From Candidatus Babeliales bacterium (GTDB lineage Bacteria; Babelota; Babeliae; Babelales; JANWKD01), in contig CAVRJM010000001.1 of the NCBI GenBank assembly GCA_963722075.1, positions 1,300,690 through 1,364,689 on the forward strand: DNA of 64,000 nt, read 5' to 3'. Shown here in pieces: positions 25,510-34,780 of the stretch; within the stretch, counting starts at the first letter, position 1; every line of letters begins with the position of its first letter. The translations under genes and the position numbers were made by a program. The notes under the pieces were generated by a model, which was not told the origin of the DNA, did no database searches, and was given only the letters and a program-made list of their open reading frames with translations.

Positions 25510-27315
25510 ATGGCAAAAACTGGTTCATATGATTTTGATGTAATAGTAGTAGGTGGTGGGCATGCTGGTATAGAAGCTGCTTATGCATCTGCTCGTTTAG
25601 GGTCAAAAACATTATTAATTACTTTAAATTTAGATCGTATTGGCTATATGCCGTGTAACCCTGCAATTGGCGGGGTGGGCAAAGGACATATTGTATTTGA
25701 AATTAGCGCCTTAGGCGGCTTAATGCCTAAATTATGTACGCAAACATATTTGCAAGCGCGTATGCTGAACACCAAAAAAGGGCCGGCGGTTCAAGGATTG
25801 CGATTACAAATTGATAAACATGCTTATAACGATCATGCCAAGCAAACATTAGAACGAACGGAAAATTTACAGATTATTTCTGGCATGGTTGAATCCTTAT
25901 TTCTTGATAATAAAGGTGCAATTTGCGGCGCCAAAACGCGTGAAGGGGTAGAATACAGTGCTGGTGCTGTTATTTTAACCACCGGTACGTTTTTAAATGG
26001 CGTGGTGCATATTGGCAAAAATAATTATTCTGCTGGTCGCCAAGGGGATGAAGCGGTTCCTCATTTAACATCATTTTTAAATAAATTGGGTTTAATAACC
26101 GGTCGATTAAAAACAGGAACACCACCGCGCTTATTGCGCTCAAGTATTGATTTTTCTCAATTAGATATGCAAGCGCCAGATAACTTGAATCATCTTTTTG
26201 AATTTCATCCGCATACCGTTACCAATAAGCGCGATTGCTTTATTGCGTATACTAATTCTAAAACCCATGAAATAATAAGAAAAAATTTACCTTTATCTGC
26301 CATGTATAGCGGCAATATTAAAGGTATTGGACCGCGTTATTGCCCGTCTGTTGAAGATAAAATTGCGCGCTTTCCTGATAAAACAGCGCATCATATTTTT
26401 GTAGAACCAGAAAGTGCTTCAAGTGATGAGATTTACCCAAACGGTATTTCTACTTCATTGCCATTACCGGTGCAACTTGAAATGGTACATTCGATTGTTG
26501 GATTTGAACAAGCGGTTATTGTGCGTCCTGGCTATGCGATTGAGTATGATTTTGTGCTTCCTGATCAATTATCCCATACATTAGAAGTTAAAAAAGTTCC
26601 CGGTCTTTTTTTGGCGGGTCAGATTAATGGCACTACCGGCTACGAAGAGGCGGCCGGCCAAGGAATTATGGCGGGAATCAATGCTCATTTGAAAGTACAT
26701 AGATTGGCGCCGTTTATACTTGATAGAAACCAAGGATATATTGGCGTTATGATCGATGATTTGGTTACCTTAGGTGTTGATGAACCATATCGTATGTTTA
26801 CTTCTCGTGCTGAACGGCGTTTAACATTGCGGCAGGATAATGTGTTTTTACGATTAGCTGACACCAGTTATAATTTAGGCCTTATTGATAAAACTATGTA
26901 CGAAGCTATTCAACAAGAAAAAGCTATTGTATCTGATACCATAACGCAACTTAAATCGGGAAAAAATAGCTGTGATATTTTGCAATTATTAGGCAATCAA
27001 GAAGAGCATAAACAGAAGCTTAATGAATTTACGGATGGCAAATTATCCAACCGATTACTAGAAACAATTTGGGCTGATATACGGTATGAGCCCTATTTAA
27101 AACGTGAAGAAAAAGAAATAGAAAAGTCAAAGGTATATCAAGAGTTGAATATTCCCGAAAGCTTTAATTATAGCATTATTCCCGGTCTTTCTACGGAGTT
27201 AAAACAAAAATTAACTAGGCATAAACCCAAAACAATTGCGCAAGCAATGCTTATTACGGGAATGACACCAGCGGCAATTTCGCTGCTTATCTTTAAGGTT
27301 CGAGAACATCAATAA
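25510..27315 (+). CDS. mnmG: tRNA uridine-5-carboxymethylaminomethyl modification enzyme
   Basis: VVGGGHAGIEAA, MPCNPAIGG, RLKTGTPPR, GPRYCPSVEDK, GQINGTTGYEEAAGQG, EPYRMFTSRAE. Confidence 0.98.
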   Translation: MAKTGSYDFDVIVVGGGHAGIEAAYASARLGSKTLLITLNLDRIGYMPCNPAIGGVGKGHIVFEISALGGLMPKLCTQTYLQARMLNTKKGPAVQGLRLQIDKHAYNDHAKQTLERTENLQIISGMVESLFLDNKGAICGAKTREGVEYSAGAVILTTGTFLNGVVHIGKNNYSAGRQGDEAVPHLTSFLNKLGLITGRLKTGTPPRLLRSSIDFSQLDMQAPDNLNHLFEFHPHTVTNKRDCFIAYTNSKTHEIIRKNLPLSAMYSGNIKGIGPRYCPSVEDKIARFPDKTAHHIFVEPESASSDEIYPNGISTSLPLPVQLEMVHSIVGFEQAVIVRPGYAIEYDFVLPDQLSHTLEVKKVPGLFLAGQINGTTGYEEAAGQGIMAGINAHLKVHRLAPFILDRNQGYIGVMIDDLVTLGVDEPYRMFTSRAERRLTLRQDNVFLRLADTSYNLGLIDKTMYEAIQQEKAIVSDTITQLKSGKNSCDILQLLGNQEEHKQKLNEFTDGKLSNRLLETIWADIRYEPYLKREEKEIEKSKVYQELNIPESFNYSIIPGLSTELKQKLTRHKPKTIAQAMLITGMTPAAISLLIFKVREHQ

Positions 27316-27328
27316 AAAAGGGTTCATT

Positions 27329-27538
27329 ATGAAATACCATCTTCCATTACTAACATTAATTTGTTGCTTGGTAGTAATGAGTCATAGTATGGATAATAGT
27401 AGGCAAGAGCGTGATAAAAGAAATCAAAAAGCTCAGGCAGAATGTCAGGCAAAGCGTAAAAAAAAACCTGACAGAACCGAAGAGGAACTAGCCCAAGATG
27501 CTATTTATATTGCAACTTTAAATTGTATTTTAATGTAA
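27329..27538 (+). CDS. Small secreted protein ending in CaaX box (CILM)
   Basis: Signal peptide then MDN; KRKKK basic patch; C-terminal CILM; spaced like an operon gene between mnmG and the next ORF. Confidence 0.65.
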   Translation: MKYHLPLLTLICCLVVMSHSMDNSRQERDKRNQKAQAECQAKRKKKPDRTEEELAQDAIYIATLNCILM

Positions 27539-27543
27539 AGTAA

Positions 27544-28206
27544 ATGATGATTAAAAAAAGATCTTTTTTTACCAGAAATAGTTTTTTTGTTTTTATTTTA
27601 ACCTTTTATAGCGTGCTTTTTATAGAATATGTTTTTACAACCAAAGAATTAGCAGCTTTAAAAATTGAAGAGGAGCTTAAAGAACAAGATGCAGTTCCGT
27701 TACTTGATGATTCCATTTTGACCATGGAGCCATTAAAGCCTAAAAATGAAGTAGTTGCCCTTACTCCAAGAAAAGAAGCAGTACCGGTAATAAAAACGGC
27801 ATCAAGTCTTACCATAGCACCAGAAAATAAAAAAAAACCTATAACGCAACAGCACGCTACTGATCATGAACGTATTGTTACCATATGCAATGATATTACT
27901 CAAGATATGGTTACCTATAAAAAACATTGGTCAGGCCATCATGCGCCGTCAAAATTTATAGTAAAAGTAAATGATCAAGAATTAAAAAAGGGCGTGCCGA
28001 CACCGGTGAAAGTGGTTGATGACAACGTGCGAATTTCTTATAGCTATGAATTTCGCGCCATGGGATGTGTGTATCGCACTGGTGGAAGAAATCTTGAATA
28101 TAAGATTCCAAAAAAAGTTGAACAATGTAGTTCAACTTTTTCCTGGGATGCCCCCCATAATTTGATTCTTGAGCATGGACAATTAGTTGCGGTTACTGAT
28201 TTTTGA
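27544..28206 (+). CDS. Hypothetical membrane-anchored protein
   Basis: N-terminal TM helix, P/K-rich linker, beta-rich C-terminal domain. Confidence 0.7.
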   Translation: MMIKKRSFFTRNSFFVFILTFYSVLFIEYVFTTKELAALKIEEELKEQDAVPLLDDSILTMEPLKPKNEVVALTPRKEAVPVIKTASSLTIAPENKKKPITQQHATDHERIVTICNDITQDMVTYKKHWSGHHAPSKFIVKVNDQELKKGVPTPVKVVDDNVRISYSYEFRAMGCVYRTGGRNLEYKIPKKVEQCSSTFSWDAPHNLILEHGQLVAVTDF

Positions 28207-32792: not shown

Positions 32793-34780
32793 ATGATTAA
32801 AAAAGTAATAAAGAAAAATGAAAGTCACGGTGCTAAAGGTCCTAAAAAGAGTAAAAATCTGATTGAAGAAGAGGCACCTAAAAAAGGTCAAAAAGCGGTA
32901 TTAAAAGAAGTTCCGGGTGATGAAGAATCATTTGATCCTACCGCACGCTTAGAAATTAAAAAAGGATTGATTGAGCCTTTATTAGTTAAAGGGAAAAAGC
33001 TTGGTTATTTAACGTATGAAGAAATTATGGAATTTAGCCATAAGCATCACTTATCTGACCAAGATACCAATTCAATCATGCGTCTTTTTGATAAAGAAAA
33101 CATTGATTTATTAATGCAAGAAGAGCTGGATACTAATTCACCTGATATACATGATTATGAAAAAGATGATGAGCCGCTTAAAAGCAAAAATTTAAAAGAA
33201 AAATTTGAAAATTCATTAGATATTGATTCTGATGAAGATTTGATTGAGGATGAAGAAGATACAGAAGCGGAAGATGAAGAGCGCCTTGCCGCTATTAAAG
33301 AAGCGGTATCTTCAACGCAAATAGCCGATGGGGTAAAATGCTACTTACGTGATATCGGTAAAATTCCTCTCTTAAATAAGAAAACTGAAACGGTTATTGC
33401 TGAGCAGATCGCTAGTGGTAAAAAAGGATCTATTGAAGCAATTTCAAAATTTCCTTTTATTCATAAAGAATTCGTTTCTATTGGTGAGCGTTTACAAAAA
33501 GATTCTATTGCACTTAAAGATGTGATTCAATTTTCTGAATTCGATCAAGAAAACTTACCAAAGGTGCAAGAAGAAAAAGATGCCTTACTGGCAACGATAA
33601 AAACAATTGCTGATTTGATTGATAATGAAGAAAAAATATATCGATCATATCGAGGAAAATTGGATACCGATGCTAAAAAGAAAGAGATGCTTGATAAGGT
33701 TAAGCAAAATAAAGAAAAAATTGCACAGACTATTCAATCAATTAAGGTCGCCAATAAACTTATTCGTAAATTAGGTAACCGTATCGAAAAAGCGGTAACT
33801 AAAATTAACGAAAAGAATCATGACATTGATCTGAGCAAAGAGAAAGTTAGTCTCTTACAGCGAAAAAAAGCAGCGCCAGAAATTCAAGCAGAGATAGAAG
33901 AACTTGAGCGTTCAATTCGTTCCTCTCAAAAGATTATTAAAAAATATGAAGGAGAGATGGGATTAAACCAAGATCTTGTTATTAAATATTATACGCAGCT
34001 TAAAATAAGTCAGGTAAAAGATAAACGTGCTAAAGATGATCTTGCTAAAGCAAACTTACGCTTAGTGGTAAATATTGCAAAAAAATATATAAACCGCGGA
34101 CTCCATTTCCTTGATCTTATTCAAGAAGGTAATATTGGTTTAATGAAAGCGGTGGAAAAATTTGAGTTTGAACGAGGCTATAAGTTTTCTACATATGCCA
34201 CTTGGTGGATTCGTCAAGCAATTACCCGTGCTATAGCAGATCAATCACGTACGATTCGTGTTCCAGTCCATATGGTGGAAACCTTAAATAAGATTAACAA
34301 AATTAAAAGAATCTTTGTGCAAGAGCATGGCCGTGAACCAACGCATGCCGAGCTTGCTAAAGAATTAAATATTGATGAAAAGAAAATCAAAAATATTATT
34401 AAGATCTCTAAAGAGCCTATTTCACTTGAAACCCCAGTAGGTGATAGTGAAGATGCCTTTATTAAAGACTTTATTGAAAACGAAGATGAATTTTCACCCG
34501 CTGATACCGTAGCAGTAATGATCTTAAAGAACGTGTGCGAGAAGTGCTTAAAACATTAACACCGCGTGAAGAGAAGGTACTTAAAATGCGTTTTGGTATT
34601 GACGTAGCGTCAGAGCATACACTTGAAGAAGTGGGTAAAGATTTCTCAGTAACGCGAGAACGTATTCGTCAAATTGAAGTTAAAGCATTACGTAAATTAC
34701 GTCATCCATCACGAAGCAAAAAATTAGAATCGTTTTTTGATAAAGAATTTGATAGCATTTCAAATGATTCTATTGAATGA
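32793..34780 (+). CDS. rpoD: Primary sigma factor RpoD, split by a 1-bp deletion near 34514
   Basis: [42 protein letters not shown]; region 4 ([29 protein letters not shown]) continues in another frame; adding one base at GTAGCAGT restores [17 protein letters not shown]. Confidence 0.95.

Follow-up and report, generated by a model that had tools for sequence, protein, structure and literature searches.

Proteins of the Babelota lineage that carry a predicted signal peptide and start their mature part with Met (Met+1 proteins) show selection for C-terminal CaaX boxes. One such protein is a 69-aa orphan ending in CILM, for which a first-pass annotation had proposed lipidation by the host. Part of that proposal stands, as the enrichment of CaaX ends in the class and yeast data on CILM suggest that the orphan's CaaX box has probably been selected as a tag for host prenylation; the other part, a K-Ras4B-type signal, does not. 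On balance, we favor a reading in which Sec would export the orphan; once in the cytosol of a protist host, it would receive a farnesyl group on Cys66 from the host enzyme and become anchored to a host membrane.

The orphan ORF occupies positions 27329..27538 (+, stop included) of the window, i.e. the whole stretch of 64,000 nucleotides that was analyzed, and reading the sequence confirmed that it encodes 69 aa and ends in CILM before a TAA stop (27536-27538). Its ATG lies 14 nt 3' of the stop of mnmG (gidA; 25510..27315, +; Pfam GIDA PF01134, E=1.6e-153) and is preceded by a putative Shine-Dalgarno-like AAGGG (27318..27322, +) that ends 6 nt before it. The ORF end is 5 nt 5' of a conserved 220-aa gene (27544..28206, +) with no Pfam or NCBIfam match, which is found close to mnmG in 5/5 of the relatives searched (Babeliales). 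The placement directly after mnmG, as originally annotated, is thus borne out, and the two neighbors delimit a variable slot in which the orphan sits. This slot is empty in relatives G002 and G014, and holds a 468-aa gene on the opposite strand in G001, an ankyrin protein ending in CILQ in G003 (L150:13368-14159), and ankyrin proteins ending in CTLQ and CTLQ in G004 (L171:14308-15931). Because the tag is conserved there, the slot ankyrin proteins of G003 and G004 would serve better than the orphan as test cases.

Several observations bear on the reality of the ORF and on its source. Per codon, the ORF reaches a dicodon coding score of 0.48, where genes of ≥300 aa have a median of 0.38. Contigs of public run X4 match positions 27373-27523, which span an A9 run, and contigs of public run X1 match 27518-27681, which span the CILM-stop, in both cases with 0 differences and 0 gaps; therefore, neither the A9 run nor the stop is an assembly error, although the source sample may be one of the two runs. 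A promoter/terminator scan stayed at shuffle level, with 12 promoter-like sites versus 14.3 in shuffles. The best named relatives of this mnmG are Babeliales/TM6 records, and the genome measures 1.47 Mb and is 99% complete. Judging from its relatives, the source bacterium is likely to be an intracellular parasite of protists; cultured Babelota relatives are described as intracellular in the text of PMC4378268. Elsewhere in the window, an rpoD-like gene (32793-34780) is broken up into two overlapping ORFs (588 and 81 aa), most likely because of a frameshift or an assembly error, and this yields a spurious Cys(-4) ending.

The hydropathy heuristic predicts a Sec signal peptide at residues 1-20 (27329..27388, +), ending in S-H-S, with a cut after S20 that would leave a 49-aa mature peptide starting MDN (27389..27535, +), in keeping with the signal peptide and mature part of about 50 residues initially described. 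With MSHS before the predicted cut and MDN after it, the orphan has the features of the Met+1 class, i.e. a signal peptide, a small residue, Met, and a polar stretch downstream. The CaaX box CILM (27524..27535, +) has the canonical layout, with Cys66 at -4, aliphatic a1 and a2 residues, and then the stop (CILM-TAA, 27524-27538). The mature peptide has just one further Cys, Cys39 (27443..27445, +), a possible disulfide partner or acylation site. A single-sequence AlphaFold model (mean pLDDT 75, pTM 0.29) consists of a charged helix (residues 6-43), a loop, and a second helix (51-68); it keeps the tail helical up to residue 68, which counts against the reading that we favor. The same holds for the stretch upstream of the box, which is unusually hydrophobic (0.39, above 22/24 secreted CaaX proteins); it contains 0 K/R at positions -11 to -5.

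The mature peptide also contains an NLS-like basic patch, KRKKK (residues 42-46; 27452..27466, +), which had been taken as the polybasic half of a K-Ras4B-type polybasic and farnesyl signal. In K-Ras4B, the polylysine run directly precedes CVIM. In the orphan, KRKKK and the Cys of the CaaX box are 19 residues apart, with acidic residues and a net charge of -4 between them, which makes this analogy weak. An unlikely variant of the favored reading would instead have KRKKK act as an NLS that cooperates with farnesylation to direct the peptide, in the manner of a lamin, to the inner nuclear membrane of the host. Runs of five K/R are indeed rare (11/685 Met+1 proteins), the distance between patch and Cys is too great for a K-Ras-type signal, and PMC2120380 states that farnesylation along with an NLS is necessary for inner-nuclear-membrane targeting of lamin. 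On the other hand, K[KR]x[KR] is no commoner in CaaX Met+1 proteins (7/18) than in the class (243/685), the patch is followed by an acidic stretch, and there are no homologues to show its conservation.

As an X residue, Met favors farnesylation. CILM as such belongs to the positive sets for both prenylation and cleavage in yeast Ras61/Ydj1 reporter screens (S1 File of PMC9231725). The supplementary rows of the same paper give positive predictions for CILM by SVM, PrePS, and Freq and a negative one by FlexPepBind. In the supplement of PMC10320760, CILM has a Ras HM score of 17.1, versus 19.4 for CVIM. Acceptance of CILM by FTase and the CaaX protease is supported by look-up in these supplements, for yeast enzymes and reporter proteins. 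Because yeast FTase is permissive and accepts many CXXX sequences (PMC10320760), substrate status alone is weak evidence.

Searches for homologues returned only the orphan itself, whether in its own genome, in a set of 5.8 billion sequences (restricted to near lengths, 37-121 aa), or among 1.84 billion representatives, and a search of the ESM Atlas gave no usable match. Against Pfam there was only noise below the cut-off and against NCBIfam nothing. Two weak matches in G004 from the family search, one at E 0.06 with internal stops and the other at E 0.13, were not accepted. The idea that the orphan is a remnant of the slot ankyrin-CaaX genes of G003 and G004 was also rejected (hhalign probability 0.1); when the orphan was compared with these proteins, the best pair was equaled in 19/500 shuffles, among 15 targets. 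As these searches found no homologue, CaaX enrichment was examined at the level of the class.

Genes were called with our own dicodon model, and signal classes were assigned from the N terminus alone using the hydropathy heuristic; that both steps rest on heuristics of our own counts against the favored reading. A CaaX end was defined as C at -4, a1 in AVILMFCT, and a2 in VILMF, a definition that was drafted after the endings of the own genome had been seen and then fixed before the analysis was repeated on new DNA. In the own genome (G000), CaaX ends occur in 9/246 Met+1 proteins, 0/368 other signal-type proteins, and 1/769 proteins without a signal (Fisher 2e-5). Looser filters gave 9/249, 0/384, and 2/870, respectively. 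The C-a-a triplet peaks exactly at -4; its mean count in these Met+1 proteins at offsets -5 to -44 is 0.42, and the expectation from shuffled tails is also 0.42.

The Met+1 class has other characteristics. It makes up 246 of the 614 signal-type proteins in G000, although Met is required by the class definition, so its frequency is partly circular. The residue after the mature Met is D/E/N/Q in 70% of these proteins (57-68% in seven relatives), and for comparison D/E/N/Q is found at residue 2 in 27% of proteins with no signal. This start matches the eukaryotic NatB acetylation motif, and the mature N terminus of Met+1 proteins may mimic that of a host cytosolic protein. Mature starts with N-terminal MG, resembling a myristoylation site, are uncommon (4/246). 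The window itself contains three tandem Met+1 genes (53634-59351; 817, 714, and 386 aa), apparently paralogues, each with MEAP at the start of its mature part. Elsewhere in the genome, a 14-kb stretch (C1:812523-826176) contains six Met+1 genes with Cys(-4), with ends CLLN, CLVS, CILF, CIIN, CLIS, and CNLY, and a copy of C1:814114 (94%) is found at C3:20045. Three further Met+1 proteins (C1:18717, 19226, and 851294) have Cys clusters near the C terminus, two of them followed by basic runs, that resemble S-acylation sites; the class shows no enrichment of CC within its final 25 residues (5/246).

The enrichment that the first-pass annotation had suggested looking for was found again in held-out DNA, consisting of 400 kb from each of seven relatives (2,648 genes). 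Here, CaaX ends occur in 9/439 Met+1 proteins, 6/644 other signal-type proteins, and 5/1,565 proteins with no signal; the difference from no-signal proteins has p=7e-4 for Met+1 and p=0.09 for other signal-type proteins, and the offset control for Met+1 gives p=1.4e-7. By genome, the Met+1 counts are 2/56 (G001), 2/59 (G003), 3/84 (G004), 1/44 (G014), 0/58 (G020), 0/60 (G022), and 1/78 (G037). The enrichment is clearest in relatives of the same family as the own genome, where 7/199 Met+1 proteins end in CaaX (offset control, p=2e-7). It is weaker in other families, with 2/240 Met+1 proteins (p=0.055) and 5/613 proteins with any signal (p=0.003) by the same control. Because kin are not independent, proteins of the eight genomes were collapsed into BLAST clusters. 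CaaX ends then occur in 13/431 Met+1 clusters versus 1.15 expected, and in 5/890 no-signal clusters versus 4.2 expected. At mnmG loci outside the Babelota, the counts (0/39 signal-type and 1/452 other proteins) are too small to inform.

The last residue lies outside the CaaX definition, and its choice follows farnesyltransferase preference. It is S, Q, or M in 15/24 secreted CaaX proteins versus 226/1,652 others (10/15 versus 142/1,052 in the held-out DNA alone), and it is charged in 0/24 versus 577/1,652. Some tails in relatives (KKKKCVIL, KSKKRCTIQ, RRKRCIIS, and KKKCIFQ) resemble those of Rho/Rac. Upstream K/R are not raised overall in secreted CaaX proteins (p=0.19), and a polybasic second signal was therefore rejected as an overall feature of the class; at least three upstream K/R are found in 5/24 of these proteins versus 116/1,652 (p=0.025). 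The box is kept in five sets of homologues at 25-39% identity, and one alignment shows an invariant C-x-L-Q following a linker that cannot be aligned. Some CaaX proteins (C1:980535, with three such paralogues; G037 L232; and G022 L217) have paralogues lacking the tag, which counts against the favored reading. Ankyrin or LRR domains are present in other members of the CaaX class.

These figures also weigh on another unlikely explanation, namely that the CILM of this particular orphan is a chance ending or a decaying relic in a fast-evolving protein, in a genome that selects CaaX ends elsewhere. The hypervariable slot and the atypically hydrophobic upstream stretch would fit such an origin, as would the frequency of C-a-a triplets in 224 hydrophobic tails (∼0.5% per offset). 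Against it, the selected rate is ∼3.5% in the class, with CaaX ends in 11/162 Met+1 proteins of ≤150 aa, versus 0.2-0.5% by chance, which gives roughly 5-13% that the orphan's box is due to chance. Shuffling the last 14 residues of the orphan produces CaaX in 2.2% of cases, a partly circular test that would lift this figure to ∼40% as an upper bound. Moreover, the box is canonical both in X (M) and in a1a2 (IL), and no remnant of the G003/G004 slot ankyrin-CaaX genes is detectable in the orphan.

The assumption that bacteria lack a CaaX prenyltransferase agrees with our searches, in which PF00432 matched in 0/41 genomes; 14 control genomes also had no match, and 1/5 other genomes did. PF01239 scored over the cut-off in 0/41 genomes. 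Rce1-like (CPBP) PF02517 matches are common, with two in the own genome, 30/41 genomes overall, and 11/14 control genomes. One of the proteins matched by PF02517 in the genome search (G000:C1:732227-735598, L261; 1,123 aa) is a multi-pass membrane protein in which the Rce1-like domain lies internally; it has similar open frames of ∼1,110-1,160 aa in 12 other genomes among the matches listed. When 1,090 residues of this protein were scanned whole, no Pfam or NCBIfam family was found.

These proteases speak for a quite improbable alternative, in which the bacterium itself would read the tag: after cleavage of the Cys tail by an Rce1-like CPBP protease, the protein would be lipidated or sorted to the surface in a MYXO-CTERM-like manner. 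PF02517 occurs twice in the own genome, including a conserved multi-pass protein of ∼1,120 aa, and Rce1-related enzymes do act on Cys-containing C-terminal signals in prokaryotes, as 10.1101/2023.06.07.544157 describes. However, the known signals are tripartite (motif, TM helix, and Arg cluster), whereas the orphan has its Cys at -4 and no TM helix, and 0/224 hydrophobic tails end in CaaX. In addition, the X preference and the Rho-like basic tails fit eukaryotic prenyltransferases, and PF02517 is common in ordinary bacteria. The accompanying enzymes point the same way: no prenyltransferase was found, a weak ICMT-like match is DUF1295, and myxosortase models score far below the cut-off.

It is very improbable, and has no specific support, that the peptide is a prenyltransferase decoy, as had also been proposed, a bulk product competing with host Ras/Rho for FTase or farnesyl diphosphate, for although its mature part is tiny and without a recognized domain and its motif is a strong canonical substrate in yeast, the ankyrin/LRR CaaX members point to the tag being an anchor in this lineage, and a block of FTase would also hit the bacterium's own other CaaX proteins, of which there are at least 8.

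The machinery for export was surveyed in the own genome. It contains two signal peptidase I genes and, for type II secretion, two secretins and two T2SSE ATPases. Despite 99% completeness, there was no match for PF00771 (FlhA/SctV, type III), PF03135 and PF02534 (VirB4 and VirD4 markers), or PF05943 (type VI marker), all of which matched in controls. PF12293 (DotH/IcmK) also had no match, with no positive control matched. Sec or type II is the only secretion reported in the texts on Babela and Chromulinavorax (PMC4378268, PMC6561590), with type II the sole system detected in Babela, which grows in a vacuole (PMC4378268), and vesicle release was seen in Chromulinavorax (PMC6561590). On the basis of signal peptides, the same two texts place the action of many orphan and ankyrin proteins in the cytoplasm of the host.

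Following the reading that we favor, signal peptidase I would cut after S20 to release the predicted 49-aa peptide starting MDN, which would pass the outer membrane by way of the type II secretin system or packed into outer-membrane vesicles and arrive in the host cytosol. There, going by eukaryotic chemistry and the yeast data for CILM, host FTase would add farnesyl, Rce1 would remove ILM, and ICMT would methylate the new C terminus. The peptide would become anchored on the cytosolic face of a host membrane, where a hydrophobic helix just upstream of the box (AIYIATLN), rather than an adjacent polybasic run, would make the second contact with the membrane, while the charged N-terminal helix would be presented to a partner in the host. 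The weak link, which counts against this scheme, is topology: a type II system would not cross a vacuole, and prenyltransferases are cytosolic. Given growth in a vacuole and type II secretion alone in Babela, an extra crossing step or escape from the vacuole would be needed.

More generally, we lean slightly toward the view that Babelota deliver proteins with Sec signals to the host cytosol in the absence of a type III, IV, or VI injector, and possess a repertoire of host-anchored CaaX proteins ranging from ankyrin/LRR proteins to a 49-residue peptide. By known chemistry, a CaaX tag is read only by cytosolic eukaryotic enzymes, and its specific selection among exported Met+1 proteins is independent evidence for cytosolic delivery. 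If this view is correct, the CaaX signature would amount to sequence-level proof of such delivery for hundreds of Met+1 orphans per genome. The tag would also be a ready reporter for finding the delivery route; since prenylation marks a protein that has arrived in the cytosol, the question of delivery becomes testable. The value of these findings lies mostly in the CaaX class rather than in the single peptide. In a phylum that has received little study, they would add signal-peptide cargo to the injected type III/IV effectors for which host prenylation is known. In the literature searched, which did not cover subscription journals, we found no report of host prenylation for Babelota or for signal-peptide cargo. 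The term 'prenyl' is absent from the main texts of PMC6561590, PMC4776705, PMC4378268, and PMC12172432, and for CaaX cargo with signal peptides or type II secretion only a Lawsonia Rce1 orthologue and the myxosortases turned up.

The orphan was compared with several known systems. It shares with K-Ras4B a C-a-a-M box, and CILM scores like CVIM in yeast screens; it differs in the position of its basic patch, 19 residues away, and it is relatives, not the orphan, that have Ras/Rho-like tails. Lamins, as described in PMC2120380, resemble it in having an NLS-like basic patch upstream of a CaaX box ending in M. The orphan has no lamin domains, and the NLS-like motif is not enriched in its class. 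The MYXO-, JDVT-, Synerg-, and CGP-CTERM signals are likewise Cys-containing C-terminal signals of exported prokaryotic proteins, and Rce1-like genes are present in the orphan's genome, but according to 10.1101/2023.06.07.544157 their Cys precedes a TM helix and an Arg cluster, whereas the orphan has its Cys at -4 with neither.

The closest parallels are bacterial effectors. Prenylation and vacuole localization have been shown for Legionella pneumophila AnkB and for Pel/CMP effectors, which are translocated by the Dot/Icm type IV system (passages of PMC2916131 and PMC13081727). The likeness is that of a protein from a protist parasite with a C-terminal CaaX box and predicted lipidation by the host, and it extends to the ankyrin-CaaX members of the relatives; the orphan differs from AnkB and the Pels in its predicted Sec signal, its 49 mature residues with no known domain, and a genome in which VirB4/VirD4 markers were not found. 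Salmonella SifA, a type III effector, is modified by GGTase I and S-acylated, as stated in parts of PMC2916131 and PMC4951486. It illustrates how a CaaX box at the C terminus can tether to membranes a bacterial protein that acts within the host, which is what is predicted for the orphan. SifA is injected by type III and geranylgeranylated, while the orphan's genome has no match to the FlhA/SctV family. In common with AnkB, the Pels, and SifA, the orphan comes from an intracellular bacterium (a lifestyle inferred from relatives) in which no CaaX prenyltransferase of its own was found; in place of their type III/IV translocation, it has a predicted Sec signal. Host prenylation is established for the injected effectors AnkB, the Pels, and SifA, and the orphan, which belongs to a CaaX class of Babelota that is clear by statistics, is likely to be a host-prenylated protein that bears a signal peptide.
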